From Escherichia coli (GTDB lineage: Bacteria; Pseudomonadota; Gammaproteobacteria; Enterobacterales; Enterobacteriaceae): 64,000 bases of DNA. Of this stretch, positions 95 to 51,039 are shown piece by piece. The notes under the pieces are model-generated. The model worked only from the letters and a program-made list of their open reading frames with translations, had not been told where the DNA came from and made no database searches. The number at the start of each line of letters is the position of its first letter. The stretch's first letter is position 1. Position numbers and translations under genes: made by a program. The stretch lies in the NCBI RefSeq assembly GCF_003991155.1, contig NZ_CP031293.1; one strand, written 5' to 3'.

Positions 95-441
95 AAATTC
101 TCCTGTAAAACGCGGAATATACCGTACCTCTTAGCGGGGAAAAACAGGGTTATGCGGCAACGTCGAAATTAAATGTGATCTGCCACGCCTTTTATCACAA
201 AAGTGTCTCCGGAAGTACGATGCAAATTTGCCTGGCAAAATAAGGATAATCAACATATTACGAATCGCTGCACACCTGTGCTGATGACTACTACGCAGAG
301 AAACAAATGTGCAAGAGAAAGCGCTATTTCTCCCCATGCAAAGAGTGAAAAATCGCTTTGAAAGGCCATCATGATGGGGTTATATCAGATCAAGCGGTGA
401 GAAAGCGTATTTGCACAAATGTGCAGAACCAGGAGGCGGCA

Positions 442-1389
442 ATGGAAAACAGTGACGATATCCGTTTGATTGTGAAGATTGCCCAACTCTATTACGAACA
501 GGATATGACGCAGGCGCAAATCGCGTGCGAACTGGGTATTTACCGCACCACCATCAGCCGCTTGCTTAAACGAGGCCGCGATCAGGGAATTGTCACCATC
601 GCCATCAACTATGACTACAACGAAAATCTCTGGCTGGAGCAGCAACTGAAGCAAAAGTTTGGCCTGAAAGACGTTGTGGTGGTGTCGGGAAATGATGAGG
701 ATGAAGAGACTCAACTGGCGATGATGGGGTTACACGGCGCGCAACTGCTGGATCGCTTGCTGGAGCCTGGCGATATTGTCGGTTTTTCCTGGGGTCGCGC
801 GGTGAGCGCACTGGTTGAAAACTTGCCGCAGGCGGGGCAATCGCGGCAGTTAATCTGCATACCAATTATTGGCGGCCCGTCCGGTAAACTCGAAAGCCGC
901 TATCATGTAAACACATTAACCTACAGCGCGGCAGCGAAGTTGAAAGGGGAATCGCATCTCGCGGATTTTCCGGCTCTACTGGATAACCCCTTAATTCGTA
1001 ATGGGATCATGCAGTCTCAGCACTTTAAAACCATCTCTGCCTACTGGGATAATCTGGATGTCGCCCTGGTGGGAATTGGCTCACCGGCCATTCGCGACGG
1101 CGCTAACTGGCATGCGTTTTATGGTGGTGAAGAGAGTGACGACCTGAATGCCCGCCAGGTTGCTGGCGATATTTGCTCGCGCTTTTTTGATATTCACGGC
1201 GCAATGGTTGAAACGAATATGAGCGAAAAAACACTCTCTATCGAAATGAATAAATTAAAGCAGGCACGATATTCCATTGGCATTGCCATGAGTGAAGAAA
1301 AATACAGCGGAATTGTTGGTGCACTGCGTGGAAAATATATTAATTGTCTGGTAACGAATAGCAGCACAGCTGAACTATTACTGAAATAA
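442..1389 (+). CDS. sorC: SorC-family transcriptional regulator of the L-sorbose operon
   Basis: ORF 358-1389; preferred start ATG 442 (MENSDDIRLIVKIAQ) preceded by AGGAGG; N-terminal HTH plus sugar-phosphate-binding domain; first gene of the sorCDFBAME order. Confidence 0.75.
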   Translation: MENSDDIRLIVKIAQLYYEQDMTQAQIACELGIYRTTISRLLKRGRDQGIVTIAINYDYNENLWLEQQLKQKFGLKDVVVVSGNDEDEETQLAMMGLHGAQLLDRLLEPGDIVGFSWGRAVSALVENLPQAGQSRQLICIPIIGGPSGKLESRYHVNTLTYSAAAKLKGESHLADFPALLDNPLIRNGIMQSQHFKTISAYWDNLDVALVGIGSPAIRDGANWHAFYGGEESDDLNARQVAGDICSRFFDIHGAMVETNMSEKTLSIEMNKLKQARYSIGIAMSEEKYSGIVGALRGKYINCLVTNSSTAELLLK

Positions 1390-1458
1390 AAATCTTCCCG
1401 ATGTTTACCGTAATAAAAATTACGGCGGGTCCCTATTATCTAAAATCAGGAGTCTGTT

Positions 1459-2265
1459 ATGCAAACGTGGTTAAATTTGCAGAATAAAATCATTATTGTC
1501 ACCGGTGGCGCATCCGGCATTGGTCTGGCGATTGTGGATGAATTATTAGCACAAGGCGCGAATGTACAGATGGTCGATATTCACGGTGGCGATGGACAAT
1601 ATGAAGGTCATAAAGGCTATCAGTTTTGGCCGACCGATATTTCCAGCGCCAAAGAGGTAAATCATACGGTAGCAGAAATTATCCAGCGTTTTGGTCGCAT
1701 CGACGGTCTGGTCAATAACGCCGGGGTCAATTTTCCGCGTCTGCTGGTCGATGAGAAAGCGCCTGCCGGGCAGTATGAACTCAACGAAGCGGCATTCGAA
1801 AAAATGGTCAATATCAACCAGAAAGGCGTTTTTCTGATGTCGCAGGCGGTGGCGCGACAGATGGTCAAACAACATGATGGCGTGATTGTGAATGTTTCCT
1901 CAGAAAGTGGGCTGGAAGGCTCAGAAGGCCAAAGCTGTTACGCCGCGACCAAAGCCGCGCTCAATAGCTTCACGCGCTCCTGGTCGAAAGAGCTGGGTAA
2001 GCACGGTATCCGTGTGGTCGGTATCGCGCCGGGGATTCTGGAAAAAACAGGACTGCGCACGCCGGAATATGAAGAAGCGCTGGCTTGGACGCGCAATATC
2101 ACCGTCGAGCAGCTGCGTGAAGGCTATACCAAAAACGCCATTCCTATTGGGCGCGCCGGAAGATTAGCAGAAGTGGCTGATTTTGTTTGTTATCTGCTGT
2201 CTGAACGCGCCAGCTATATCACCGGAGTAACCACTAACATTGCGGGCGGCAAAACGCGCGGCTAA
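1459..2265 (+). CDS. sorD: Short-chain dehydrogenase/reductase, D-glucitol-6-phosphate dehydrogenase SorD-like
   Basis: 268 aa; SDR glycine motif TGGASGIG near N-terminus; SD CAGGAG before ATG; position in sor operon. Confidence 0.75.
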   Translation: MQTWLNLQNKIIIVTGGASGIGLAIVDELLAQGANVQMVDIHGGDGQYEGHKGYQFWPTDISSAKEVNHTVAEIIQRFGRIDGLVNNAGVNFPRLLVDEKAPAGQYELNEAAFEKMVNINQKGVFLMSQAVARQMVKQHDGVIVNVSSESGLEGSEGQSCYAATKAALNSFTRSWSKELGKHGIRVVGIAPGILEKTGLRTPEYEEALAWTRNITVEQLREGYTKNAIPIGRAGRLAEVADFVCYLLSERASYITGVTTNIAGGKTRG

Positions 2266-2274
2266 GGAGGCTTT

Positions 2275-2682
2275 ATGGTCAATGCCATTTTTTGCGCCCA
2301 CGGCAAATTAGCCTGCGCCATGCTGGAATCGGTTCAGATGGTGTACGGCGATGCCAGGGTCGAGGCAGTTGAATTTGTGCCCGGCGAGAACGCCGGAGAC
2401 ATTGTGGCAAAGCTGGAGAAGTTAGTGAGCATTCACAATCATGACGAGTGGCTAATCGCCGTGGATTTACAGTGCGGCAGCCCGTGGAATGCGGCAGCGG
2501 TGCTTGCGATGCGCAATCCTCGTCTGCGGGTAATCAGCGGCCTTTCACTGCCGCTGGCGCTCGAACTGGTTGATAACCAGGACAGCATGAATGTTGATGA
2601 ACTGTGTGAACACCTGACGCAAATCGCAAAGCAATCCTGCGTCGTCTGGAGACAGGTGGCAACGGCAGAGGAGGATTTCTGA
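2275..2682 (+). CDS. sorF: PTS mannose-family EIIA component (sorbose-specific)
   Basis: 135 aa; EIIA-Man-like N-terminus (MVNAIFCAHGKLA); SD AAGGAGG; operon position. Confidence 0.8.
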   Translation: MVNAIFCAHGKLACAMLESVQMVYGDARVEAVEFVPGENAGDIVAKLEKLVSIHNHDEWLIAVDLQCGSPWNAAAVLAMRNPRLRVISGLSLPLALELVDNQDSMNVDELCEHLTQIAKQSCVVWRQVATAEEDF

Positions 2683-3176
2683 TGAACATTACGCTCGCCC
2701 GCATTGATGACCGCCTGATCCACGGTCAGGTCACTACCGTCTGGTCGAAAGTGGCTAACGCCCAGCGCATTATTATCTGCAATGACGAAGTTTATAACGA
2801 TGAAGTTCGCCGGACATTATTGCGTCAGGCTGCGCCACCGGGAATGAAGGTTAACGTGGTCAATATTGAAAAAGCCGTCGCGGTTTATCACAACCCGCAA
2901 TATCAGGACGAAACCGTTTTTTATCTTTTCACTCGCCCACAGGATGCCTTAGCGATGGTTCGCCAGGGGGTAAAAATAGGTACCCTGAATATTGGCGGTA
3001 TGGCCTGGCGTCCTGGTAAAAAACAGTTAACCAAAGCAGTTTCATTAGATGACGATGATATTAACGCATTTCATGAGTTAAATAATCTTGGCGTCATACT
3101 GGATTTACGCGTCGTAGCGTCAGATCCCTCAATCAATATTATCGACAAAATAAACGAACAGTTAATCGCAAATTAA
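2682..3176 (+). CDS. sorB: PTS mannose-family EIIB component (sorbose-specific)
   Basis: 164 aa; EIIB-Man motif RIDDRLIHGQV with phospho-His; start overlaps sorF stop (TGATG). Confidence 0.8.
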   Translation: MNITLARIDDRLIHGQVTTVWSKVANAQRIIICNDEVYNDEVRRTLLRQAAPPGMKVNVVNIEKAVAVYHNPQYQDETVFYLFTRPQDALAMVRQGVKIGTLNIGGMAWRPGKKQLTKAVSLDDDDINAFHELNNLGVILDLRVVASDPSINIIDKINEQLIAN

Positions 3177-3241
3177 ATAATAGCGCCTGTGTACATATGC
3201 TTTAACAGGCAGGGATGACGACACTTAAAAGGTGACAAATC

Positions 3242-4039
3242 ATGGAAATAAGTACCCTACAAATTATTGCTATATTTCTTTTTTCCTGTATTGCCGGAAT
3301 GGGCAGCGTGCTGGATGAATTTCAGACTCATCGTCCGTTAATTGCCTGTACGGTGATTGGTTTAATTCTCGGTGATTTAAAAACCGGAATTATGCTCGGT
3401 GGTACGCTGGAATTGATAGCTCTCGGCTGGATGAACGTCGGCGCGGCGCAATCTCCGGATTCTGCACTCGCCAGCATAATCTCCGCCATTCTGGTTATCG
3501 TTGGTCAGCAAAGCATCGCCACCGGAATCGCCATCGCGTTGCCTGTGGCTGCGGCAGGCCAGGTGCTAACGGTGTTTGCCCGTACCATCACCGTAGTGTT
3601 CCAGCACGCGGCGGATAAAGCAGCGGAAGAAGCACGGTTTCGCACTCTCGATATTCTGCATGTCTCCGCGCTTGGCGTGCAGGCACTGCGCGTTGCTATT
3701 CCGGCACTGATTGTCTCGCTGTTCGTCAGCGCCGATATGGTGAGCAATATGCTGAGCGCCATTCCCGAATTTGTGACCCGTGGACTGCAGATTGCTGGCG
3801 GTTTTATCGTGGTGGTCGGTTACGCCATGGTGCTTCGCATGATGGGCGTGAAATATTTGATGCCTTTCTTTTTCCTCGGTTTCCTCGCAGGTGGCTACCT
3901 CGATCTCAGTCTGCTGGCGTTCGGTGGCGTCGGCGTGATCATGGCCCTGCTCTACATCCAGTTAAATCCACAGTGGCGTAAAGCTGAACCACATCCCCAG
4001 ACCACCACTATCACCGCCCTTGACCAACTTGATGATTAA
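3242..4039 (+). CDS. sorA: PTS mannose-family EIIC membrane component (sorbose-specific)
   Basis: 265 aa, highly hydrophobic multi-TM protein; operon position. Confidence 0.8.
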   Translation: MEISTLQIIAIFLFSCIAGMGSVLDEFQTHRPLIACTVIGLILGDLKTGIMLGGTLELIALGWMNVGAAQSPDSALASIISAILVIVGQQSIATGIAIALPVAAAGQVLTVFARTITVVFQHAADKAAEEARFRTLDILHVSALGVQALRVAIPALIVSLFVSADMVSNMLSAIPEFVTRGLQIAGGFIVVVGYAMVLRMMGVKYLMPFFFLGFLAGGYLDLSLLAFGGVGVIMALLYIQLNPQWRKAEPHPQTTTITALDQLDD

Positions 4040-4049
4040 CGGAGCCATC

Positions 4050-4874
4050 ATGGAACAGAGAAAAATTACACGCAGCGATCTGGTGAGCATGTTTCTGCGC
4101 TCCAACCTGCAACAGGCATCCTTTAACTTTGAACGTATTCACGGGCTGGGTTTTTGCTACGACATGATCCCCGCCATCAAACGACTTTACCCATTAAAAG
4201 AGGATCAGGTTGCGGCGCTCAGGCGACACCTGGTGTTCTTCAATACCACGCCAGCCGTATGTGGCCCGGTCATCGGCGTCACTGCCGCCATGGAAGAGGC
4301 GCGAGCCAACGGCGCGGAAATTGATGACGGTACCATTAACGGCATCAAAGTAGGTCTGATGGGACCATTGGCAGGAGTTGGCGATCCACTGGTCTGGGGA
4401 ACGCTGCGCCCGATTACCGCCGCGCTCGGCGCATCTCTGGCACTTTCGGGCAACATTCTCGGCCCCCTGCTGTTCTTCTTTATTTTCAATGCAGTACGTC
4501 TGGCAATGAAATGGTATGGGCTGCAACTGGGCTTTCGTAAAGGGGTGAATATCGTCAGCGATATGGGCGGTAATTTGCTGCAAAAACTGACCGAAGGCGC
4601 GTCGATTCTCGGGCTGTTTGTAATGGGCGTACTGGTGACCAAATGGACATCGATCAACGTGCCGTTAGTGGTTTCACAAACGCCTGCCGCCGATGGTGCC
4701 ACCGTCACTATGACCGTACAGAACATTCTCGACCAGCTTTGCCCTGGATTGCTGGCGCTCGGTTTGACGCTGCTGATGGTACGTCTGCTCAACAAAAAAA
4801 TTAACCCGGTATGGCTGATTTTCGCCCTGTTTGGTTTAGGGATTATCGGTAATGCGCTGGGCTTCCTGTCCTGA
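4050..4874 (+). CDS. sorM: PTS mannose-family EIID membrane component (sorbose-specific)
   Basis: ORF 4020-4874; preferred start ATG 4050 (MEQRKITRSDL) after ACGGAG; EIID-like hydrophobic protein. Confidence 0.8.
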   Translation: MEQRKITRSDLVSMFLRSNLQQASFNFERIHGLGFCYDMIPAIKRLYPLKEDQVAALRRHLVFFNTTPAVCGPVIGVTAAMEEARANGAEIDDGTINGIKVGLMGPLAGVGDPLVWGTLRPITAALGASLALSGNILGPLLFFFIFNAVRLAMKWYGLQLGFRKGVNIVSDMGGNLLQKLTEGASILGLFVMGVLVTKWTSINVPLVVSQTPAADGATVTMTVQNILDQLCPGLLALGLTLLMVRLLNKKINPVWLIFALFGLGIIGNALGFLS

Positions 4875-4925
4875 TTCTTCGCCCCGGCGCAACCGTCGGG
4901 GCCATCGTTCAACATGAGGTGGTTT

Positions 4926-6155
4926 ATGAAAACAACAGCTCTGCGTCTTTATGGTAAACGTGATTTACGCCTGGAAACCTTTGACCTTCCTGAAATGCAG
5001 GAGGATGAAATCCTCGCAACGGTGGTCACTGACAGCCTGTGCCTCTCTTCCTGGAAAGAGGCCAATCTGGGGGAAAACCATAAAAAAGTACCCGACGATG
5101 TGGCGACCAATCCCATCATCATCGGCCACGAATTTTGCGGCGATATTCTGGCCGTGGGTAAAAAGTGGCAGCACAAATTCCAGCCGGGTCAGCGTTATGT
5201 GATTCAGGCCAACCTGCAACTCCCCGACCGCCCGGACTGCCCCGGCTACTCCTTCCCGTGGGTAGGCGGCGAAGCGACGCATGTGGTTATTCCCAACGAG
5301 GTCATGGAACAAGATTGCCTGCTGGCATACGACGGCGAAACCTATTTTGAAGGCTCGCTGGTTGAACCGCTTTCCTGCGTGATTGGCGCGTTCAACGCCA
5401 ACTATCATCTTCAGGAAGGTAGTTATAACCACACGATGGGGATTCGCCCGCAAGGGCGCACGCTGATCCTCGGCGGCACCGGACCAATGGGACTGTTGGC
5501 GATTGATTATGCGCTACATGGACCCGTTAACCCTTCGCTGCTCGTCATTACCGATACCGACAACGACAAATTGAGTTATGCGCGCAAGCACTATCCATCA
5601 GAACCGCAAACACTGATTCATTATCTCAATGCCACCGATGCAGCATTTGATACGTTAATGGCGCTGAGTGGCGGTCACGGCTTCGATGATATTTTCGTCT
5701 TTGTGCCTAATGAAGGACTGGTGACTCTCGCCTCTTCCTTGCTGGCGACAGATGGTTGCCTGAATTTCTTCGCCGGACCGCAGGATAAGCACTTCAGCGC
5801 GCCAATTAATTTCTACGATGTGCATTATGCATTTACCCACTACGTAGGCACGTCAGGCGGCAATACCGACGACATGCGCGCAGCGGTCAAATTGATTGAA
5901 GAGAAAAAAGTGCAGGCCGCAAAAGTGGTAACACATATTCTTGGGCTGAATGCCGCGGGCGAAACCACGCTTGAATTGCCTGCCGTCGGCGGCGGGAAAA
6001 AACTGGTGTATACCGGGAAATATCTGCCGCTGACATCACTCACGCAGATTCAGGATGAAGAACTGGCGGCGATTCTGGCGCGTCATCAGGGAGTCTGGTC
6101 CGGCGAGGCGGAGCAGTACCTGCTCGCCCATGCAGAGGCGATTTCCCATGATTAA
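4926..6155 (+). CDS. sorE: L-sorbose-1-phosphate reductase, Zn-dependent alcohol dehydrogenase (MDR) family
   Basis: ORF 4914-6155; preferred start ATG 4926 after GAGGTGG; MDR-type motifs (GHEFCG; GGTGPMG nucleotide-binding loop); last sor gene. Confidence 0.7.
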   Translation: MKTTALRLYGKRDLRLETFDLPEMQEDEILATVVTDSLCLSSWKEANLGENHKKVPDDVATNPIIIGHEFCGDILAVGKKWQHKFQPGQRYVIQANLQLPDRPDCPGYSFPWVGGEATHVVIPNEVMEQDCLLAYDGETYFEGSLVEPLSCVIGAFNANYHLQEGSYNHTMGIRPQGRTLILGGTGPMGLLAIDYALHGPVNPSLLVITDTDNDKLSYARKHYPSEPQTLIHYLNATDAAFDTLMALSGGHGFDDIFVFVPNEGLVTLASSLLATDGCLNFFAGPQDKHFSAPINFYDVHYAFTHYVGTSGGNTDDMRAAVKLIEEKKVQAAKVVTHILGLNAAGETTLELPAVGGGKKLVYTGKYLPLTSLTQIQDEELAAILARHQGVWSGEAEQYLLAHAEAISHD

Positions 6156-6960
6156 TCGCGATACTCAACTCTGCATGTCGCTGGCCGGCTGCCCCGGTAA
6201 CTTCGGCACGCGTTTTCACAATTATCTTTATGAAAAGCTGGGGCTGAATTTCATCTATAAAGCGTTCACCACCCAGGATATTGCAGCGGCGGTGAAAGGG
6301 GTTCGCGCGTTGGGTATTCGCGGTTGCGCTGTGTCGATGCCGTTTAAAGAAAGCTGCATGCCTTTTCTCGACGCGATCGATCCGTCGGCGAAGGTCATTG
6401 ATTCCGTGAATACCATCGTGAATGACGACGGCAGGCTGACCGGGTTTAACACCGACTATATCGCGGTGAAAAGCCTGATTACCCACCACCAGCTCAATAC
6501 CACCACGCGAGTGATGATTCGCGGCAGTGGCGGCATGGGCAAAGCGGTGATTGCCGCCTTTCGCGACGCGGGGTTTACGGATGTTATCATTGCCGCCCGC
6601 AACCGCGAGAGCGGCCCGGCGCTGGCGAAGCAGTATGGGTTTCAGTGGCAACCGCAGCCGGAAGGCATCGCCTGCGACATTCTGGTCAACGTGACGCCCG
6701 TTGGCATGAGCGGCGGTAAAGAGAGCCATGAGCTGGCCTTCAGCGAAGCGATGGTCTCAACGGCAAGCGTCGTTTTTGATGTCGTGGCCTTGCCGCCGGA
6801 AACGCCGCTCATTCGCCTGGCGCAACGGCTTGATAAGCAGACGATTAGCGGTGCGGAGGTGATTGCTTTACAGGCCGTCGAGCAGTTCGCAATGTATACC
6901 GGCGTACGGCCTGATGCGCAACTGATTGCTGAGGCGGCACAATTTGCACGAGAAGGATAA
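6148..6960 (+). CDS. Shikimate 5-dehydrogenase-like (AroE/YdiB family) NAD(P)-dependent dehydrogenase, function in this context unknown
   Basis: ORF 6055-6960; preferred start ATG 6148 overlapping sorE stop (ATGATTAA); AroE-like motifs SMPFK and NTDY, glycine-rich GSGGMGKA. Confidence 0.6.
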   Translation: MINRDTQLCMSLAGCPGNFGTRFHNYLYEKLGLNFIYKAFTTQDIAAAVKGVRALGIRGCAVSMPFKESCMPFLDAIDPSAKVIDSVNTIVNDDGRLTGFNTDYIAVKSLITHHQLNTTTRVMIRGSGGMGKAVIAAFRDAGFTDVIIAARNRESGPALAKQYGFQWQPQPEGIACDILVNVTPVGMSGGKESHELAFSEAMVSTASVVFDVVALPPETPLIRLAQRLDKQTISGAEVIALQAVEQFAMYTGVRPDAQLIAEAAQFAREG

Positions 6961-21457: not shown

Positions 21458-21901
21458 ATGGTTATTAGTATTCGCCGCTCACGGCATGAGGAAGGGGAGG
21501 AACTCGTTGCGATTTGGTGTCGTTCTGTCGATGCCACTCACGATTTTTTATCAGCAGAGTATCGGGCCGAGCTGGAGGAGCTAGTTCGTTCCTTCTTGCC
21601 GGAAGCGCCGTTGTGGGTCGCGGTTAATGAGCGGGATCGGCTGGTTGGGTTTATGTTGTTAAGTGGGCAGCATATGGATGCGCTTTTTGTCGATCCTGAT
21701 GCGCGCGGTTGTGGCGTGGGCCGGATGCTGGTGGAACATGCGCTCTCGATGGCACCGGAACTGACAACCAATGTTAATGAGCAAAATAAGCAGGCTGTTG
21801 GGTTCTATAAGAAGATGGGTTTTAAGGTTACGGGACGCTCTGAGGTGGACGATTTGGGGAAACCGTATCCATTGCTGAATCTGGCATATGTGGGGGAATA
21901 A
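21458..21901 (+). CDS. yjaB: GNAT-family N-acetyltransferase
   Basis: 147 aa; GNAT acetyl-CoA motif region (ARGCGVGRMLVEHA); position between metA and rrnE. Confidence 0.8.
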   Translation: MVISIRRSRHEEGEELVAIWCRSVDATHDFLSAEYRAELEELVRSFLPEAPLWVAVNERDRLVGFMLLSGQHMDALFVDPDARGCGVGRMLVEHALSMAPELTTNVNEQNKQAVGFYKKMGFKVTGRSEVDDLGKPYPLLNLAYVGE

Positions 21902-21979
21902 GCTGCCCCCTATCGTGCTATCGTGCCTGCGTAAGCTGGAGCAGACGCGCCAGCGTCGCAGCCGGCCGTTTTCTGCACC

Positions 21980-22012
21980 AGCGCAAAAAGGCCATCCTGA
22001 CGGATGGCCTTC
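21980..22012 (-). terminator. rrn operon terminator (T1-like)
   Basis: Minus-strand hairpin AGGCCATCCGTCAGGATGGCCT followed by TTTTTGCG just downstream of the 5S gene. Confidence 0.7.
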
Positions 22013-22023
22013 TGCTAAATTTG

Positions 22024-22143
22024 ATGCCTGGCAGTTCCCTACTCTCGCATGGGGAGACCCCACACTACCATCGGCGCTACGGCGTTTCACTTCTGAGTTC
22101 GGCATGGGGTCAGGTGGGACCACCGCGCTAAGGCCGCCAGGCA
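22024..22143 (-). rRNA. rrfE: 5S ribosomal RNA
   Basis: Reverse complement matches the E. coli 5S sequence (UGCCUGGCGGCC...GGGAACUGCCAGGCAU) with one difference near position 13 (U instead of G). Confidence 0.95.
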
Positions 22144-43288: not shown

Positions 43289-44418
43289 AAACCTTCAGCG
43301 ATCGCTGGCGACAACTGGACTGGGACGACATCCGCCTGCGTATCAACGGCAAAACGGCTGCTGACGTAGAGCGGGCGCTAAATGCCTCGCAACTCACCCG
43401 CGACGACATGATGGCATTGCTATCACCCGCCGCCAGTGGCTATCTGGAACCACTGGCCCAGCGAGCGCAGCGTCTGACCCGTCAGCGATTTGGCAACACA
43501 GTTAGTTTCTACGTCCCGCTTTATCTTTCCAATCTTTGCGCTAACGACTGCACGTACTGCGGATTTTCCATGAGCAATCGCATCAAGCGCAAAACACTGG
43601 ATGAAGCGGATATTGCCAGGGAAAGCGCCGCTATACGGGAGATGGGCTTTGAACATCTGCTTTTAGTCACTGGTGAACATCAGGCGAAAGTGGGGATGGA
43701 TTACTTTCGTCGTCATCTCCCTGCCCTGCGTGAACAGTTCTCTTCACTACAGATGGAAGTGCAACCGCTGGCGGAGGCGGAATATGCCGAGCTAAAACAG
43801 CTGGGTCTCGATGGCGTGATGGTTTATCAGGAGACATATCACGAGGCGACTTATGCCCGCCATCATCTGAAAGGCAAAAAACAGGACTTCTTCTGGCGGC
43901 TGGAAACGCCGGATCGGCTGGGCCGTGCGGGGATTGATAAGATAGGCCTCGGCGCGCTAATTGGCCTTTCCGACAGCTGGCGCGTTGACTGCTATATGGT
44001 TGCAGAACATTTGCTATGGCTGCAACAGCATTACTGGCAAAGCCGCTACTCTGTCTCCTTCCCACGCCTGCGTCCATGTACTGGCGGCATTGAGCCTGCG
44101 TCGATTATGGATGAACGCCAGTTAGTGCAAACCATCTGCGCCTTCCGGCTGCTTGCACCGGAGATTGAACTGTCACTCTCCACGCGGGAATCACCGTGGT
44201 TTCGCGATCGCGTGATTCCGCTGGCAATTAATAACGTCAGCGCTTTTTCGAAAACGCAGCCAGGTGGCTATGCCGACAATCACCCCGAGCTGGAACAGTT
44301 CTCACCACACGACGATCGCAGGCCGGAAGCGGTTGCTGCCGCGTTAACCGCTCAGGGTTTGCAGCCGGTATGGAAAGACTGGGACAGCTATCTGGGACGC
44401 GCCTCGCAAAGGCCATGA
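43285..44418 (+). CDS. thiH: 2-iminoacetate synthase (radical SAM tyrosine lyase)
   Basis: 377 aa; radical-SAM CNDCTYC motif; start overlaps thiG stop (ATGA). Confidence 0.9.
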
Positions 44419-44530
44419 GACAGAATGTAAGAACGTAAATTTATTCCGAGCCGCTACGGAAGATGAAAAACGCAAGGTTGTTGAAAGCGTTGTGTTTTTT
44501 TATGGTAGTGCCGTCAGCAGGAATGTTGTC

Positions 44531-44571
44531 CAGGGCGAAAAGCTTCTTCCTCGTTTCGCCCTGCCTTTCTT
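44531..44571 (+). terminator. Candidate terminator of thi operon
   Basis: Hairpin CAGGGCGAAA...TTTCGCCCTG followed by CCTTTCTT. Confidence 0.45.
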
Positions 44572-44735
44572 AAAATAACGTCTCAGTACGCTATTTCATG
44601 ATTGCCCGCAAAAATATTCATTAATATTTCTATTGTTTTAACAAAGAAGGCACAAGGCTTTAATTGCAAAGCAAGATCGCCGTCAAAACAAGAGTGTGCA
44701 ATAACCGGTTATAATAATTCCACCCTCACCAAAAT

Positions 44736-45386
44736 ATGGTCCAGAACATCATGTCAGCTTACCTAAAAAAAGCGTTATCGATTCATAGTGATGAATTTCG
44801 CCCATACGGAAACGTAATTTCTGCAATAAATGTAGATTCATTGCTTAAATACCTTAAAGAGGAAATTTCTGTACCTGAGGATCAGGTGGCATATGTCAGA
44901 AGCGATGAGCGCTTAAAGCAATACCCCGCCGTGAGCGACATTCAGCGCCAAATCTACGGTGGAATGCCCGTTCAGGCTGGGTACGTTTGTGGGGTAAATA
45001 CCACCCAGGATGGCTTTGAATATCACCAGGGAAGTGAAGTCATTATCGCCGCCAGCGATTTTTTCCTGTTTTTAGGTAAACGAGAGTTGATGCAGGGTGA
45101 CACGTTTAATGGTGAACGTGCAGAGCCGTTTTTCATTCCGGCAAAATCGGTGATTGAACTTTATAGCACAACGCTACATTACTGCCCTATGAGTATCAAT
45201 GCACAACCTTTTAGTGCAGCGATTATTCTTCTTGATGGAACTAATGAAGATATTGATGGCAAGAATAAACCAACAATATTAAGCAAGCGAAATACCTGGT
45301 TTATCGCCCATGAAAGTTTCACTGAGCATCCTTGCCCATTATTAAAAGGGCCGCATCTTTGCGTGAATGATATTATTCATGGGTGA
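44736..45386 (+). CDS. Cupin-fold protein of unknown function (accessory)
   Basis: 216 aa; cupin-like motifs (G..EYHQGSEV..., ...TTLHYCP...); AT-rich; alternative start ATG 44751 (MSAYLKK); no strong SD. Confidence 0.45.
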   Translation: MVQNIMSAYLKKALSIHSDEFRPYGNVISAINVDSLLKYLKEEISVPEDQVAYVRSDERLKQYPAVSDIQRQIYGGMPVQAGYVCGVNTTQDGFEYHQGSEVIIAASDFFLFLGKRELMQGDTFNGERAEPFFIPAKSVIELYSTTLHYCPMSINAQPFSAAIILLDGTNEDIDGKNKPTILSKRNTWFIAHESFTEHPCPLLKGPHLCVNDIIHG

Positions 45387-45390
45387 AAAT

Positions 45391-45410
45391 GGCGAAGATT
45401 TCTCTTCGCC
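45391..45410. terminator. Bidirectional hairpin terminator between convergent genes
   Basis: GGCGAAGA-tttc-TCTTCGCC perfect stem with T-rich flanks on both strands, between stops at 45386 and 45417. Confidence 0.5.
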
Positions 45411-45416
45411 TGTTCT

Positions 45417-48071
45417 TTACCCGGCAATTACCGCCACGCTGTCTTTTGTTCGCACGCGTGGTGGCATGGTCAGACCGCAGCGATCCCACTCATTCCCCTG
45501 CCATGCACTCGCAAAATAATAATGATTCGCTGCCGATGGGTAGACCACGACCGCCAGTTCATTACGCTTTTTTAGTAAAGACTGTGGCAAGGTGAAACGA
45601 TATTCCGGCCAGCCCTTTTCGGCAATTAACGTATCGTTAAGCCAGATAGCAACGCTTCCCTGCACTTGCGGTAAATAAAGCTCAATATCGTCGGTAATCG
45701 TCTCCAGCGCAAAGCGTAACTGATAATGTCCCGGACCACACCACGTCTCCATCCCCTGCTGCTCCCACCCTTTTGTTACCTCAACGGGTCGGGAAACGTT
45801 ATCAACCAGCAGTTGCCAGTGCTTATCCAGCACCACCTCGTGGCGACTTTCCACTACCTGCAATGAAAAGCAACGGGCCTGCCAGGGCTCGATTTGTAGC
45901 GGATAACTTCCCGTGAGATGCTCTTCCAGCACTGAAACCTCTCCCGTTGCAAGATGCCACTCCGACAACTGCCCACTGAGGCCCGGAAAATGTAGCCAGC
46001 CGTAGAGCGGGGTATCTCCGTCGTTAAATACGCTGACGTAACGCGATGTTTCATCCTGGGTAATTCGCGTCCAGACGGCAGTTTTCCGGGAGGGATAGTC
46101 AACAAAGGGGTGATCGTTTTTCAGCGTGTCGGCTAACGTGCTGCACTGCGGTTGCGCCTCAATCAGTTTTTGCAGCCTTTCGGTGAGAGAACGATCTTCA
46201 CCTTTTTCCTCGCTATATGCCGCAAGCTCGCCGGCGATCAGAAGCTGGCCACCAGCGGCGACAAAGTGCTCCAGTTGGCTCAGCGTGGCGGCTGATTTCA
46301 CCACCTTAACGTCCGCTAACAGAAGCGCAGGGAAATTCATGCCGTTAATGCGCGTTCCATCAGCCTGGAGCAAATTCTCTTCATCAATAAAGAAATATTC
46401 AAATCCCTGAGCGCTGAGTTGTTTTGCCCAATATTCGCCTGACTGCCCTTCGTTGCCATCCACGCCACAGTGCCAGAAAGTCCGTTTGGGATAGAGTACG
46501 CCAACATCAACGTACGGCTCTCCCTGCTCAAGAAATTCGGCAAGGCGACCAGATTCCTGAGCAAACCCAGCGTGGAAGGCGTACCAGGGCTGGAAGTTAA
46601 CGCCCGGCGCAAAATCAAAACGCGGGTTACTTAATACGTCGTCATTTGCCTCGCCATCCGTCAGCCAGAACGCGTGCATCAAAAATTGCCGCGCACCGAG
46701 GAGGTGATGGCGCAATGCCTGCAACCGGATGTCATGCAGTGAAATTTCCCACTGCCCGGCAGCAAAATGTGTGCATGGCTTCACCCGCGCATAATATTGC
46801 TCAACAATGCACCCTTTACGCCCATGAGCGCGCGCCACAGAGTCGCCAACCTTCGCCGCCATCTGCGGCTCGCTATTTCGCGAATCGACAGCCGTAATAT
46901 CCCGCCAGCCATCGAGAGCAAAGTAATCCATAGCAAAATTACACCGGTTATCTTCGGTGATGATTTTACTGGCGAAATTCCAGCTACTAACGTGACCTAA
47001 TACTTCATGACCACTTAGCTGTATTCCCCGCTGGTGCGCCCATTCTGACAACGTACCAAAAAAGGCCTGCATCGCCTGGCTGGAATAACAGGAAAGCAGC
47101 TCACAGCGCCGACGTGCGGTACGACTGCCAATGTCCATAACTAACGACATCAGGTTTTCTGCCAGGCAGTAAGGTGCCTGTTGCAATGCATCAACAAACC
47201 TTTTTTCATACATTAAGGAGGATTTGACCGCGCCAGTATGTTCATTCCATTGCCAGAAACAGGCGTGTGGCTGGTCGAAAAAGAGATACGCCACCGTCTT
47301 ACCAAAATGATCGCCAAAAGCGCGGGCGTAAGGTTCATAGCCGACACGAATAAAATTTTCTGCCGCTTCGGGCATCAGGTAATTAATCATCCGTGAGGTC
47401 AAGCAACGCGCCGCGGCAAAGAGCGTCACTACCGTTTCCGCACCCCAGGGCAGGTCGCTTCCCGTAAAGGTGACCTCAAATTCCTCTGTGGTTGCTTTGG
47501 TGATGCGGGCCAATGAAGAAACATCAACAATTTCATCTGCATTGCACTCCCCTGATGAAGAGGTGGCATACGCTGCGACAATTTCCCATTCATCCCACGC
47601 CGGTTTACCGCCAGCAAAAATCCACTCCATTCCACACTGCTGTAGCGCCTGCGCATCCGCAGAGCGGATCCCGGAAAGGTGACATGTCAGTACATCTGCA
47701 GACCGGCTGGACTGGCTCCAGAAAAGATGGCGCTCACGCAGCTCATCTCTCCCTTCAACGGTCCTTCCCCCGGCGTGCCCGGAAAGCCAGTTGTAATCAT
47801 CGTAGATGCCCATCATCAGCCCAATATTGGCAGCTTTATCAGCCGTGTAGCGACAGGCTGCCAGCCACTCCTCACTGAGATAACTCTCCAGCGGAAGACT
47901 CAGACGTGCGGCTATCTGAAATGAACCATACCCTCCCGCCTGCAGTTGCCTCAGTTGGCTGTCGATCTGCTTTTTGTCCGGAATGGTATGCCAGAACCAG
48001 TAGGTTGCAGGCAGGTGCCATACATCAGGATTTTTAAAGTTTTGGCGTGCCTGTGCTAACGAATCATTCAT
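45417..48071 (-). CDS. Large cytoplasmic hydrolase-like enzyme, probable glycoside hydrolase with C-terminal beta-sandwich; family unassigned (accessory)
   Basis: ORF 45417-48104; preferred start ATG 48071 (MNDSLAQARQNF) preceded by AAGGGGGA and overlapping upstream permease stop; 884 aa; no signal peptide; aromatic-rich N-terminal region. Confidence 0.55.
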   Translation of the reverse strand: MNDSLAQARQNFKNPDVWHLPATYWFWHTIPDKKQIDSQLRQLQAGGYGSFQIAARLSLPLESYLSEEWLAACRYTADKAANIGLMMGIYDDYNWLSGHAGGRTVEGRDELRERHLFWSQSSRSADVLTCHLSGIRSADAQALQQCGMEWIFAGGKPAWDEWEIVAAYATSSSGECNADEIVDVSSLARITKATTEEFEVTFTGSDLPWGAETVVTLFAAARCLTSRMINYLMPEAAENFIRVGYEPYARAFGDHFGKTVAYLFFDQPHACFWQWNEHTGAVKSSLMYEKRFVDALQQAPYCLAENLMSLVMDIGSRTARRRCELLSCYSSQAMQAFFGTLSEWAHQRGIQLSGHEVLGHVSSWNFASKIITEDNRCNFAMDYFALDGWRDITAVDSRNSEPQMAAKVGDSVARAHGRKGCIVEQYYARVKPCTHFAAGQWEISLHDIRLQALRHHLLGARQFLMHAFWLTDGEANDDVLSNPRFDFAPGVNFQPWYAFHAGFAQESGRLAEFLEQGEPYVDVGVLYPKRTFWHCGVDGNEGQSGEYWAKQLSAQGFEYFFIDEENLLQADGTRINGMNFPALLLADVKVVKSAATLSQLEHFVAAGGQLLIAGELAAYSEEKGEDRSLTERLQKLIEAQPQCSTLADTLKNDHPFVDYPSRKTAVWTRITQDETSRYVSVFNDGDTPLYGWLHFPGLSGQLSEWHLATGEVSVLEEHLTGSYPLQIEPWQARCFSLQVVESRHEVVLDKHWQLLVDNVSRPVEVTKGWEQQGMETWCGPGHYQLRFALETITDDIELYLPQVQGSVAIWLNDTLIAEKGWPEYRFTLPQSLLKKRNELAVVVYPSAANHYYFASAWQGNEWDRCGLTMPPRVRTKDSVAVIAG

Positions 48072-49563
48072 GGCTTTCCCCCTTCTTAATCGGCGGAACA
48101 TCACAATGACAAATGTATGTCAAAATGGCATACAGCGCCGCGCCCACCAGCATCGCCACCACTACGCCAATATTTGCTGTCGCAAACACGCTGGTTTTGG
48201 TTTCTGCCGTCAGTAAGAAGCCGACCAGGTGAGCAATCCACGGATCGCCTGAGGTGATGGTTCCCATGCCGATAACCGATGCAACAAACAGCGATAATAA
48301 TGCCGTCCAGCGACCGTTACGCCCGCCAAGCCCCGCGGGCTGCGCCATATCAGTGTTCCAGTGCAAGCGTTTTTGCCGGGCAAAGTCGACAAGCTGGATT
48401 GCGCCCATCGATCCCAATACGACGGATACCGTTGCCAGAAAAGACTGAAAGGTTGCGAGGAACGAGTCAGAAACAAACAATAAGTAGAAGGCACCGAATG
48501 CGATAATGACCGCATTGATAGCAGTGGTGGTTGAACGACTGGCTGGAACGCCCATTGCCAGCAATGCGAGGCCTGAGCTGTAAACACCTGTAATGGCTGC
48601 CGCCAGCAGGGAGATGATGATCACGATTGAAAACGGCACATAGAACCAAAACGGCAGGAACGAGGTTAAGGCCGCAATCGGTTCGGACGCTGCTGCTCCG
48701 CTCAGTTCCGGGTTACTGTCGGCCAGCAGGGCACCTAAAATCAGCAGGATGGAAACCGGAAGCGAAATCCCAAGCGACGTCCAGAAAATCACTTTCCCGG
48801 CAGCGGTTTTGCGCGGCAGGTAACGGGCGAAATCACCGCCATAGTTGAGAAAGCCCAGCCCAACCATCGTCATTGCCATCACCATGCCGCCGATAAACGT
48901 TAAAAATCCGGCATCGGGAGCAGCACCCGCCTGCGACCAGTGAATATGTGGCAGGATCAGGATAATAAAGATGATGCTCATTCCGCCCGTTAACCATGCA
49001 ATATACTTTTCTACCTTCATGATGAGCTGGTGGCCGTAGATGGCAACGGACATAGTCAATACTAAGGTCACCACGAACCAGCCCAACAGGCACCCTAAGG
49101 TAGGGTGACCGTTTTCTGCTGCAAATACGGTTGGCCATAACCGGGCAAAGAGGGCGGCGCCAGTGGTCGAGGACAACGTAATAATGGTGATTTTCCAGCC
49201 CATATTGGAAATATAGGCAAATAAAGTGGGGATCTTATTCCCATGATAACCAAAGGCAAATCGGGTCTGCGTTAAGGTAGGCAGCCCGGTGCGTGGCCCA
49301 CCAACGGCCAGAACCCCCACCAGCGTGCTGGATAAAAAATAGCCCACGACACCGGCAACAATCGCCTGCCAGAGGCTTAACCCCAGTGAGTAAACATAAA
49401 TCCCATAGGTAATACCGAGGATGGATACATTCCATGAAAACCAGATCGGGAAAAGTCCGGCAGGCGAACCATAACGTTCGTTATCACTAACCGGGTTTAC
49501 CCCATTGGTTTCCACCTTCATCGTACCTGAAACATCAGATGGGTTCTGGGCTTGGCTCGTCAT
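48064..49563 (-). CDS. NCS1-type (nucleobase/nucleoside/vitamin cation symporter-like) permease (accessory)
   Basis: ORF 48064-49755; preferred start ATG 49563 (MTSQAQNPSD) preceded by GAGAGGA; 499 aa, about 12 TM; N-terminal P..ER...F..WFS.N motif resembling NCS1 family. Confidence 0.55.
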   Translation of the reverse strand: MTSQAQNPSDVSGTMKVETNGVNPVSDNERYGSPAGLFPIWFSWNVSILGITYGIYVYSLGLSLWQAIVAGVVGYFLSSTLVGVLAVGGPRTGLPTLTQTRFAFGYHGNKIPTLFAYISNMGWKITIITLSSTTGAALFARLWPTVFAAENGHPTLGCLLGWFVVTLVLTMSVAIYGHQLIMKVEKYIAWLTGGMSIIFIILILPHIHWSQAGAAPDAGFLTFIGGMVMAMTMVGLGFLNYGGDFARYLPRKTAAGKVIFWTSLGISLPVSILLILGALLADSNPELSGAAASEPIAALTSFLPFWFYVPFSIVIIISLLAAAITGVYSSGLALLAMGVPASRSTTTAINAVIIAFGAFYLLFVSDSFLATFQSFLATVSVVLGSMGAIQLVDFARQKRLHWNTDMAQPAGLGGRNGRWTALLSLFVASVIGMGTITSGDPWIAHLVGFLLTAETKTSVFATANIGVVVAMLVGAALYAILTYICHCDVPPIKKGESHE

Positions 49564-49564
49564 T

Positions 49565-50782
49565 TTATTTCCTCTCATATTGAGCAAGACGTGATAGTAC
49601 GGCTTCATACTCAGGCATGTTCGATGCGCCTTCCCGCTCGACCGCCAGAGAAGCAAACGCAGAGGCAAATTTTGCTGCACTGAGCAACGGCTGGCCCTGC
49701 GCAATCGCCGCAGCAAACGCACCGTTAAACGCATCCCCCGCACCGGTGGTGTCAATACTTACTGCTTTTAACGCTGGAATATGGGTAAATTGTTCACCGT
49801 CATAAATCAGCGCCCCTTGAGAACCCATCGTAATAATGATGTTTTTTGCCCCCAGGGATTTTATGGTTTGCGCCGCTTCTTTCGCACTCTCGATATCATT
49901 AATCTCGACACCGGACATCAGCGACGCTTCTGTTTCATTCGGTGTCAGATAATCAACATATTGCAGGCATTCTTTTGCCTGGTCAGAATAAGGGGCTGGG
50001 TTAAGGATAGTTTTCACGCCCGACCGATGTGCCATATTTAGTGCCAGCGTGGTTGCTTCAAAGTTATTTTCCAACTGTGTCAAAAATATTTTGGCGTCCG
50101 TCAACTCACCCGCAATACTGGCAACTTCCGCTTCAGTGATATATTGATTGGCGCCAGAATAAATCGCGATCTTGTTTTCACCAGCAGGCTCCGAAACATA
50201 TATTATGGCGCTTCCTGTTTTATGCTCTTCGTCCTGGTAGAGGGTAAAGCTGCGGATATCGGATGAAGAGAGATGATCATGCGCCATCTGGCCGAAATGG
50301 TCGTTGCCAACTTTGCCGACGAAGTGTACCTGGACGGGACATTTGCTGGCTGCCATCGCCTGGTTTGCGCCCTTGCCGCCAGGTCCAATGATGGTATTGC
50401 TGGCAAGAATTGATTCGCCGCTTTTAGGGAAGCGATCAACTTTGGCAATAATATCGACATTAAAAGATCCTAATATACAAACTTTGCTTATCATTATTTT
50501 CCCTTTTTTGTTTGTCATCGAGTTTTTTCGCCAGTTGACCTGATTGAGGAACTTTTCAATAGAGGTACCAACGTTATTAACGGGCTGAGAATGGAAAATC
50601 CGACGCAATATTATTGCTCCGCCGTGACAACGCTCAACACCCCCTTGCTCCGCTAATAAATTTAAATCATTACGGATCGTTTCTTTACTGACAGAGAATA
50701 AGATGGCGAGTTGATTAACCGTAGCCCGCTCATGTTTATTCAAATATGCCAATATTTGACGTTGTCTTTCTTTCCCAAACAT
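49565..50782 (-). CDS. Fusion protein: N-terminal DeoR-type HTH domain + PfkB-family ribokinase-like sugar kinase (accessory)
   Basis: 405 aa; N-terminal RQILAYLNKHERATVNQLAILFSVSKETIRNDL (DeoR HTH); kinase motifs GPGGKGANQA, NPAP, TPNETEA and DTTGAGDAFNGA collinear with RbsK; SD GAGGTGA before ATG 50782. Confidence 0.7.
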   Translation of the reverse strand: MFGKERQRQILAYLNKHERATVNQLAILFSVSKETIRNDLNLLAEQGGVERCHGGAIILRRIFHSQPVNNVGTSIEKFLNQVNWRKNSMTNKKGKIMISKVCILGSFNVDIIAKVDRFPKSGESILASNTIIGPGGKGANQAMAASKCPVQVHFVGKVGNDHFGQMAHDHLSSSDIRSFTLYQDEEHKTGSAIIYVSEPAGENKIAIYSGANQYITEAEVASIAGELTDAKIFLTQLENNFEATTLALNMAHRSGVKTILNPAPYSDQAKECLQYVDYLTPNETEASLMSGVEINDIESAKEAAQTIKSLGAKNIIITMGSQGALIYDGEQFTHIPALKAVSIDTTGAGDAFNGAFAAAIAQGQPLLSAAKFASAFASLAVEREGASNMPEYEAVLSRLAQYERK

Positions 50783-50985
50783 GATTTCACCTCACGTAAC
50801 ATTTATATCTTTTGTAATTTTCTGATTCCATGAATCCTTTCACACTACCATCACGAAAACAAAAACAAACGGGAATTTTTGGAGGAAAGGTTTTTTTATT
50901 CAATGGGATAGTGAGAGGGGAATGTTGTTTTGAAAAAACACTCCCGAAAAATGCGTGGGAAAGCGCTTTCAATCGTAAACGGAAT

Positions 50986-51020
50986 GCAAAAAAAAGCCAG
51001 TCAGTGTGACCTGACTGGCT
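50986..51020 (-). terminator. Rho-independent terminator of rpoC
   Basis: Minus-strand hairpin GCCAGTCAGGTCACACTGACTGGC followed by TTTTTTTT. Confidence 0.8.
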
Positions 51021-51039
51021 TATTTCTTAAGAAGAGCGA

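Follow-up and report, generated by a model that had tools for sequence, protein, structure and literature searches.

Gene content and layout of the thiH-rpoC locus

We analyzed the interval between thiH and rpoC in a 64,000-nucleotide stretch of Escherichia coli DNA (RefSeq assembly GCF_003991155.1, contig NZ_CP031293.1), referred to here as the window. The interval contains four genes. Three encode a helix-turn-helix (HTH)-ribokinase fusion, an NCS1 permease, and an 884-aa glycoside-hydrolase-like protein, and they form one translationally coupled operon on the minus strand. The fourth encodes a cupin and is convergent with the operon. The locus is real, intact, selectively maintained, and rare in E. 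coli. The operon may take up and salvage a small riboside. Gene coordinates are those of the RefSeq annotation of strain 2016C-3878, which is 100% identical to the window across 7.5 kb around the locus.

The left flank, thiH, is on the plus strand and ends at 44418. The right flank, rpoC, is on the minus strand and ends at 51040. The strain-specific segment spans 44577-51036, and its 6460 bp stand in place of yjaZ or the 80-bp spacer of other E. coli. In BLASTN comparisons with yjaZ-type (L012), empty-type (L013), and phosphotransferase system (PTS)-type (L014) loci, similarity stopped at 44575/6 and resumed at 51037. The strain-specific DNA begins at 44577 and not at the end of thiH because the 157 bp 3' of thiH are common to all E. 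coli. A preliminary description, made from the letters of the sequence, had outlined an interval of about 6.6 kb at 44419-51039 with four open reading frames (ORFs) not recognized as K-12 genes. The gene set was borne out, and K-12-type genomes hold only yjaZ or nothing there. The strain-specific extent is smaller than outlined.

The fusion gene (49565-50782, minus strand) encodes 405 aa and is annotated as "ribokinase" in RefSeq. Its TAA (49567-49565) lies a single base before the ATG (49563) of the permease gene (48064-49563, minus strand; 499 aa; RefSeq "purine-cytosine permease family protein"). The permease TGA (48066-48064) overlaps the ATG (48071) of the hydrolase gene by 8 nt within ATGAATGA, and AAGGGGGA is immediately upstream. 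The hydrolase gene (45417-48071, minus strand) encodes the 884-aa protein, a RefSeq "hypothetical protein." Both junctions are as first described. The cupin gene (44751-45386, plus strand) encodes a DUF4867 family protein of 211 aa in RefSeq. The 216-aa ORF reported earlier is obtained with an ATG at 44736. A hairpin reported between the operon and the cupin gene is present at 45391-45410. It has a perfect 8-bp stem and a 4-nt loop (GGCGAAGA-TTTC-TCTTCGCC) and is likely a bidirectional terminator of the convergent genes.

A terminator scan placed the rpoC terminator hairpin at 50994-51021, with an 11-bp stem and a T-run. The core terminators had been described as intact. The rpoC terminator is intact, but it is of the Salmonella type and not of the K-12 type. 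In carriers of the block it (AAGCCAGTCAG...CTGACTGGCTTTTTTTT) resembles that of Salmonella, and the K-12-type terminator AAAAACCCGCTTCGGCGGGTTTTTTT is found in both yjaZ-type and empty-type E. coli loci.

Upstream of the fusion gene is a conserved 60-bp block (50821-50880, minus strand) that contains AAAATTCCCGTTTGTTTTTGTTTT and is a candidate promoter or operator. It includes the palindrome GATTC-ATG-GAATC (50836-50824). The block is nearly invariant in E. coli, Escherichia whittamii, Salmonella, and a more distant enteric bacterium (L009/L010), while the surrounding intergenic DNA diverges. We propose that the block and its palindrome may be the operator of the fused HTH, with the kinase domain as sensor. 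A consensus scan upstream of the kinase gene found no good sigma-70 promoter. A CRP site in the block was considered and dropped; by eye, the half-sites in CGTGA-N6-TGTGA are direct and not inverted.

The HTH-ribokinase fusion

The fusion contains a DeoR-type HTH at about residues 1-75 (nt 50558-50782) and a ribokinase at about residues 98-405 (nt 49565-50491). Its N terminus matches the HTH of GlpR, AgaR, and SrlR. PF08220 and PF00294 are present; the DeoR sensor domain PF00455 is absent, and PfkB stands in its place. Despite its DeoR-type HTH, the fusion does not qualify by domain content as a canonical DeoR regulator.

The kinase passed the ribokinase equivalog model TIGR02152 with 313.5 bits (cut-off, 299.65). 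It fell below the cut-off of a second ribokinase model, NF008353 (277.8 versus 341). It aligns over its full length with the solved ribokinases 4X8F and 1RKD and keeps NxD, GGKGANQA, QLE, and GAGDxFNG. Its GSFNVD, GGKGANQA, QLE, and GAGDAFNG lie at the ribose-binding and catalytic positions of RbsK (1RKD-group and 4X8F chains). We take the corresponding residues of E. coli RbsK to be N14/D16, G41-N46, E143, and D255.

Fusions of this kind are widespread in Enterobacterales, where they align over the full length at about 60% identity and occur in other gene contexts. In Salmonella bongori (L072:7001-13904), a 64%-identical fusion heads an operon with a sugar ATP-binding cassette (ABC) transporter and an ADP-ribosylglycohydrolase-family protein. 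That operon is another cluster that combines a ribosyl-bond hydrolase with a ribokinase. In Dickeya and Rahnella (L073:7001-10968 and L074:7001-11238), a fusion of about 60% identity is followed by dihydrodipicolinate synthase (DHDPS)-family, DUF386, and major facilitator superfamily (MFS) genes. The fused regulator-kinase therefore appears to be reused in at least three catabolic contexts in Enterobacterales. Searches of the literature and databases found no work that characterizes it.

A different arrangement was seen in Mycetocola lacteus (L038:2596-4554). Its 652-aa ORF has a ribokinase domain at residues 364-650 and about 360 residues before it, and this first part takes the position of the separate LacI gene of other Actinomycetes. 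The ORF may have arisen as an independent fusion of regulator and ribokinase, or it may be an artifact of ORF calling.

The 884-aa protein

The 884-aa protein had no match in NCBIfam or in a single-sequence search of the PDB. The Pfam model for glycoside hydrolase family 106 (GH106), PF17132, matched residues 30-131 only, at an i-Evalue of 0.027, and the protein does not qualify as GH106 by this sequence model. Only 3 of 45 family members match PF17132 at an E value of ≤0.001. Two sampled GH106-type relatives match it at 3e-29 and 4e-12.

An AlphaFold2 model was built from the 45-sequence alignment and had a predicted local distance difference test (pLDDT) score of 91. Foldseek on the model recovered the fold and domain architecture of solved GH106 members. 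The best PDB hits were 6Q2F (E value, 2.3e-40) and 5MQM (E value, 7.9e-36), with a template modeling (TM) score of about 0.5 and 13% identity, and GH42-type enzymes came next. A PDB search with the family profile retrieved these two rhamnosidase entries as well, 6Q2F with an E value of 5e-24. Residues 2-13 are predicted in the model to be helical and not a signal peptide, and for this reason the enzyme is taken to be cytoplasmic.

An exhaustive search of 1.84 billion representatives retrieved about 45 full-length close relatives, and 91 sequences had E values of ≤1e-30. Beyond the close relatives is a halo of proteins of about 1000 aa with 25-30% identity, from which the two GH106-type relatives matching PF17132 were sampled. 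D91, D266, H355, E424, H466, and D486 are common to the family and to 16 GH106-type relatives. The GH106-type relatives lack about a dozen residues that are invariant in the family, including E113, W150, W159, W162, E356, W364, D374, R376, D396, and D410. These point to a substrate pocket different from that of the GH106-type relatives.

By profile and fold comparison, the protein belongs to a small family remotely related to GH106 rhamnosidases. We did not file it as GH106 because it failed the sequence model, has distinct invariant residues, and lies in a different genomic context. None of its relatives in UniProt or AFDB has a specific name, and those in UniProt are labeled "alpha-L-rhamnosidase-like." No paper or database entry that characterizes a family member was found.

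The NCS1 permease

The permease matched TIGR00800 over residues 20-433 with an E value of 2e-25. Its score was 89 bits, against a subfamily cut-off of 353. PF02133 was matched on orthologues, including that of Salmonella. The match identifies the permease as an NCS1 member at the superfamily level only. RefSeq names these proteins "purine-cytosine permease family protein" or "cytosine permease." The name carries little weight because the score is far below the subfamily cut-off.

In 42 of the 57 loci described below, the permease gene immediately precedes the hydrolase gene, and the two often overlap. The permeases are 61 to 73% identical to that of E. coli even in Streptomyces, Bifidobacterium, and Succinatimonas, and they keep this identity where the hydrolase is only 35 to 47% identical. 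This conservation argues for one strictly defined transported substrate. Our literature and database searches returned no characterization of this NCS1 partner.

The DUF4867 cupin

The cupin matched PF16161 (E value, 7e-54) and PDB entry 9GYY (E value, 7.5e-34). Its E90, H92, E96, and H143 align with the SqvB metal ligands Glu97, His99, Glu103, and His150. The DUF4867 proteins SftX and SqvB belong to sulfoquinovose pathways, and 9GYY is the structure reported for them (PMC11968277). That study proposes a role as a sugar mutarotase or ring isomerase; mutarotase activity was not detected (PMC11968277). The E. coli protein shares the Pfam family and all four metal ligands with SftX and SqvB, but its locus has no sulfoglycolysis genes. 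A literature search on DUF4867, ribofuranosidases, and the transport and hydrolysis of nicotinamide riboside (NR) returned the DUF4867 structure paper as the only relevant work.

The DUF4867 gene is beside the hydrolase gene in 2 of the 57 loci, both from Escherichia, and also in Salmonella enterica. The cupin had been described as part of the gene block. This holds in Escherichia and Salmonella only, and the conserved module does not include the cupin. It is a lineage-specific add-on and may take the sugar ring or anomer isomerase role of the RbsD/FucU-type protein in actinobacterial versions.

Gene neighborhoods of the hydrolase family

Gene neighborhoods were scanned in 57 loci, with one genome per species, and neighbors within 8 kb were counted by tblastn. 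Gene calling in high-GC loci used a GC3 filter. The loci span Enterobacterales, Succinivibrionaceae, Bifidobacterium, many Actinomycetes, Bacillota, Chloroflexi, and Alphaproteobacteria. The NCS1 permease is the most frequent neighbor counted (42/57). It is followed by a LacI regulator (27/57), a ribokinase-like kinase (23/57), an RbsD/FucU-like protein (14/57), and an isochorismatase-family hydrolase (13/57). NicB-like genes are present in 6/57 loci, ADP-ribosylglycohydrolase-like genes in 5/57 (Bacillota examples are L030, L034, and L053), PotD-type binding proteins in 5/57, and DUF4867 in 2/57 (Escherichia only). No rhamnose-catabolic genes and no recurring nucleobase-catabolic or nucleobase-salvage gene were found in the 57 neighborhoods.

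The kinases in the actinobacterial and Bacillota clusters are 24 to 33% identical to the E. coli kinase domain, and all match the ribokinase model best. This is consistent with separate recruitment of kinases in different lineages. Because the diverged kinases are still ribokinase-like, ribose is supported as the product. Microbispora has the Pfam-annotated order PfkB-NCS1-GH-RbsD_FucU. One metagenome-assembled genome (MAG) has an RbsABC-type transporter with PfkB-GH.

Loci linked to nicotinate degradation

A gene pair with the NicA/NicB architecture (2Fe-2S / molybdopterin-cytochrome c) precedes the hydrolase gene in six loci from Rhizobium. In L060, the hydrolase ORF overlaps the nicB-like ORF by 4 nt. 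The Rhizobium cluster also encodes NicC (5EOW; E value, 2e-178), the maleate isomerase NicE (4FQ7; E value, 3e-111), an alpha/beta hydrolase, and a NicF-like amidohydrolase (3OT4/3UAO; E value, 2e-37). The Rhizobium enzymes keep 62 to 67 of 70 family-invariant residues, including nearly all of the acidic ones. The cluster encodes an ABC transporter with a PotD-type, cation-binding receptor. Such a receptor binds cations and so would suit a pyridinium riboside.

An Amycolatopsis MAG has the order nicX (7CN3; E value, 4e-92), nicE, NCS1, hydrolase, and it contains a divergent NicC-like gene. Two ORFs beyond the NicC-like gene resemble molybdenum-hydroxylase subunits by N-terminal motif alone. 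The nic-linked NCS1 of Amycolatopsis and the E. coli permease share 67% identity. Such similarity would imply a common transported substrate for the loci linked to nic genes and those linked to a ribokinase. Rhizobium and Bacillota clusters also have in common a distinct subgroup of isochorismatase-family proteins.

A second large hydrolase-like gene follows the homologue of the 884-aa protein in Rhizobium (L060:10647-12863; L047, L048, L049, L052, L056, and L063). Its product of about 740 aa is weakly similar to GH63 / glucosylglycerate hydrolase / trehalase-type (alpha/alpha)6 enzymes. The Rhizobium substrate could carry a further sugar.

Distribution and history of the locus

The block was found in 49 of 5426 complete E. 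coli genomes. It is always chromosomal, and all copies are ≥99.9% identical. None of the four ORFs is disrupted in the window or in 44 carriers. The remaining five carriers are one base shorter. They are IAI39 and four strains with CE10 among them (hits H74-H76 and H78). The permease gene of IAI39 is split into two ORFs (L075:3788-5287), and the annotation of the four others likewise shows the permease as two fragments. These strains probably lack a functional transporter but retain intact kinase and hydrolase genes. IAI39 and CE10 are, we presume, phylogroup F reference strains.

Among E. coli genomes, the rpoC-thiH gap takes at least four forms. It is empty, or it holds yjaZ, the operon described here, or a PTS block. 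The PTS block encodes PTS IIA/IIB/IIC, a 6-phospho-beta-glucosidase (GH4), GntR, and SIS (E. coli F637, L014:12571-18098). The GH4 gene of F637 has an internal stop.

The same four genes as in the window lie between rpoC and thiH in S. enterica, where the large protein has 89% aa identity, and at the same site in E. whittamii and another Escherichia sp. In Superficieibacter electus, the three-gene operon without the cupin adjoins thi genes. An enteric metagenome contig (L009) has the operon between rpoC and thiH, with the PTS block (L009:10885-16458) alongside. The adjacency of the two blocks in L009 suggests a larger ancestral locus.

Compared with E. whittamii, synonymous divergence (dS) is 0.23 to 0.27 for the island genes and 0.31 to 0.32 for thiG/thiH. 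Compared with Salmonella, it is 0.42 to 0.65 for the island genes, 0.27 for rpoC, and 1.1 to 2.6 for thiG/thiH. The lowish dS may reflect exchange between Escherichia and Salmonella after their split. In both comparisons, the ratio of nonsynonymous to synonymous divergence (dN/dS) is 0.03 to 0.19 for all four genes: 0.03 to 0.05 for the permease, 0.09 to 0.12 for the 884-aa protein, and 0.17 to 0.19 for the cupin. All four genes are under purifying selection.

The locus does not behave as a mobile island. The four genes have no mobility function, the site is shared across enteric genera, and the divergence from E. whittamii matches that of thiG/thiH. The earlier report of no integrase, transposase, or direct repeats agrees with this: the four ORFs include no mobility gene, and the only sequence shared by the edges is the 8-bp TTTCTTAA. 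It occurs near both boundaries, at chance level by eye. Deletion between the two TTTCTTAA copies was considered as the origin of the empty locus and was ruled out, as the empty and yjaZ types have a different rpoC terminator.

The block looks like an old enterobacterial locus that was lost or replaced in most E. coli and not like a recent mobile island, because it has the same site in other enterics and an Escherichia divergence like that of thiG/thiH. The preliminary description had left a choice between old acquisition and deletion in the K-12 lineage. Deletion fits better with the same-site relatives and the thiG/thiH-like divergence. Whatever the substrate, one small group of closely related E. 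coli appears to have kept an old enterobacterial catabolic locus.

Proposed function

The operon would serve to take up and salvage a small riboside; nicotinamide riboside and/or nicotinate riboside are the most likely candidates. We give this full reading an even chance of being right. That a riboside is imported and hydrolyzed and that a ribose kinase acts on the product is probable, given the domains and neighbors of the genes. That the substrate is a pyridine riboside is plausible and falls a little short of an even chance. This substrate was chosen from genomic context, because it unites ribose, a nicotinate-type ring, and a small cationic molecule that an NCS1 protein can transport.

The NCS1 permease would import the riboside, and the 884-aa enzyme would cleave its ribosyl bond in the cytoplasm. 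The ribokinase domain would turn the freed ribose into ribose-5-phosphate. The fused DeoR-type HTH would control the operon from the conserved upstream block, with the kinase domain as its sensor. In E. coli the base would feed into nicotinamide adenine dinucleotide (NAD) salvage, and in soil bacteria it would be degraded by the nicotinate pathway. Import, cleavage, phosphorylation, and HTH regulation had been guessed in the preliminary description. Comparative genomics (permease, kinase, and mutarotase neighbors) agrees with that guess and sharpens the substrate, and we still infer the pathway from genes.

Several points weigh against the nicotinamide or nicotinate riboside assignment. All known GH106-type enzymes are O-glycosidases, namely alpha-L-rhamnosidases. 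Enzymes that cleave NR and were found in literature searches belong to other families (nucleoside hydrolase Urh1 and BST1). E. coli already has PnuC/NadR for nicotinamide riboside. The RbsD/FucU-like proteins score higher against FucU than against RbsD and are below both cut-offs. The isochorismatase-family proteins match nicotinamidase profiles no better than they match generic cysteine hydrolases. The evidence for ribose and the evidence for nicotinate come from separate sets of loci, with the exception of the isochorismatase subgroup, and the bridge between them is mainly the permease. The split permease gene in IAI39 indicates that the locus is dispensable.

A bolder proposal, which we hold only tentatively, is that the 884-aa protein founds a new GH family that branched from the GH106 fold and acts on the N-ribosyl bond of pyridinium ribosides (nicotinamide and nicotinate riboside). 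With the NCS1 permease it would form a new bacterial route for the use or salvage of these NAD precursors in the gut (some E. coli, Salmonella, Bifidobacterium, and Succinivibrionaceae) and in soil, where it would feed nic. DUF4867 would then be a ribose ring or anomer isomerase that replaces RbsD/FucU.

An ordinary nucleoside with a purine or pyrimidine base, or a glycoside of a nucleobase, could instead be the substrate, with the large enzyme as a nucleosidase and the ribokinase recovering the ribose. The RefSeq purine-cytosine and cytosine permease names and the NCS1 membership favor such a substrate, and the ribokinase and RbsD/FucU-like neighbors fit any riboside. The embedding in nic clusters of two phyla and the PotD-type binding protein would be left unexplained, however. 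No gene of nucleobase catabolism or salvage recurs in the neighborhoods, and the permease, at 89 bits against 353, is far from the NCS1 subfamily cut-offs. We consider a nucleoside substrate unlikely.

It is improbable that the 884-aa protein is an alpha-L-rhamnosidase or other O-glycosidase acting on a small plant-type O-glycoside, with a kinase that acts on another sugar or serves mainly as a regulator. Such an enzyme would agree with the nearest solved folds, which are GH106 rhamnosidases, with the core residues shared with PF17132-passing proteins, and with the label of the UniProt relatives. However, identity to solved GH106 enzymes is 13%, and the Pfam GH106 match is below significance. 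The neighborhoods have recurring ribokinase-like kinases and no rhamnose-catabolic genes. Many of the family-invariant residues are missing in the GH106-type relatives, and an NCS1 importer is generally unusual for a sugar glycoside. That the block in E. coli is a decaying remnant without a current role, kept by chance in one lineage, would fit its presence in 49 of 5426 genomes, the five shortened copies with the split permease of IAI39, and its loss from most lineages, but is very improbable given that the ORFs of the window and of 44 carriers are undisrupted, that dN/dS is low, and that the upstream block is conserved.

If the substrate assignment is correct, an enzyme family and a transporter could be named for bacterial breakdown of nicotinamide and nicotinate ribosides. 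These ribosides are NAD-boosting supplements and are present in milk and gut. Their conversion by gut microbes is known, and the responsible enzymes are only partly identified. The rhamnosidase-type fold would be extended to a ribosyl, possibly N-glycosidic, substrate. DUF4867 would gain a testable role, and the widespread HTH-ribokinase fusion would be characterized.

Comparison with known systems

The earlier description could name no characterized pathway with this architecture. It had also left room for the cupin being the YjaZ/HtrC orthologue, for these genes occurring in the K-12 interval, and for an existing pathway name. None of these was found. The cupin is not YjaZ (best BLASTP E value, 3.1), and the K-12-type interval is without the genes. 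In the NCBIfam, Pfam, PDB, and literature searches, the gene set was unmatched, and no characterized pathway combining the importer, the 884-aa enzyme, and the HTH-ribokinase was found.

The 884-aa protein was compared with the GH106 rhamnosidases BT_0986 of Bacteroides thetaiotaomicron (5MQM/5MWK) and that of Novosphingobium sp. PP1Y (6Q2F). Its model shares their TIM barrel, alpha/beta domain, and C-terminal beta-sandwich/galactose-binding-like domains. The homology is detectable by profile (E value, 5e-24), and core barrel residues are shared. In contrast, the 884-aa protein is about 150 to 250 residues shorter and is predicted to be cytoplasmic. Its gene is paired with an NCS1 importer and a ribokinase and not with polysaccharide-utilization or rhamnose genes.

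In K-12, the pseudouridine utilization genes psuK/psuG/psuT (yeiC/yeiN/yeiM) and yegTUV each place a transporter gene beside genes for an unusual enzyme that cleaves a ribosyl bond and for a kinase of the PfkB family, within a single operon. Operons for the use of sugar glycosides follow a similar general plan. The operon logic is the same as in the window, but the hydrolase fold and the transporter family differ. The psu kinase acts on the nucleoside before cleavage, whereas the kinase in the window is a canonical ribokinase fused to an HTH.

Known NR routes use PnuC/NadR in enterobacteria, Nrt1 (NCS1) with Urh1/Pnp1 in yeast, and BST1 in mammals. The putative importer in the window is likewise an NCS1 protein, as in yeast, and NadR likewise fuses an HTH to riboside-handling enzyme domains. 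Urh1 and BST1 catalyze the reaction proposed here, from NR to nicotinamide and ribose. None of these systems uses a GH106-like enzyme or a ribokinase, and PnuC/NadR phosphorylates the riboside and does not cleave it.

Relative to the nic cluster of Pseudomonas putida (nicAB, nicC, nicX, nicD, nicF, and nicE), homologues of the hydrolase are embedded in the nic clusters of Rhizobium and Amycolatopsis, with an NCS1 gene also in Amycolatopsis. The E. coli locus has no nic genes, and the classical nic cluster has no glycoside hydrolase.

Other features of the window

The RefSeq annotation of the identical strain has no yjaA between the rrnE 5S rRNA gene and yjaB (window positions about 21900-22030). 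We take yjaA to be a Clermont phylotyping marker, and its absence would fit a non-A, non-B2 background. The window also contains an L-sorbose-type PTS operon at about 440-6960. It encodes SorE, mannose-family PTS IIA-IID, a short-chain dehydrogenase/reductase (SDR) oxidoreductase, and a sugar-binding regulator. It is presumably another accessory sugar locus that K-12 lacks.

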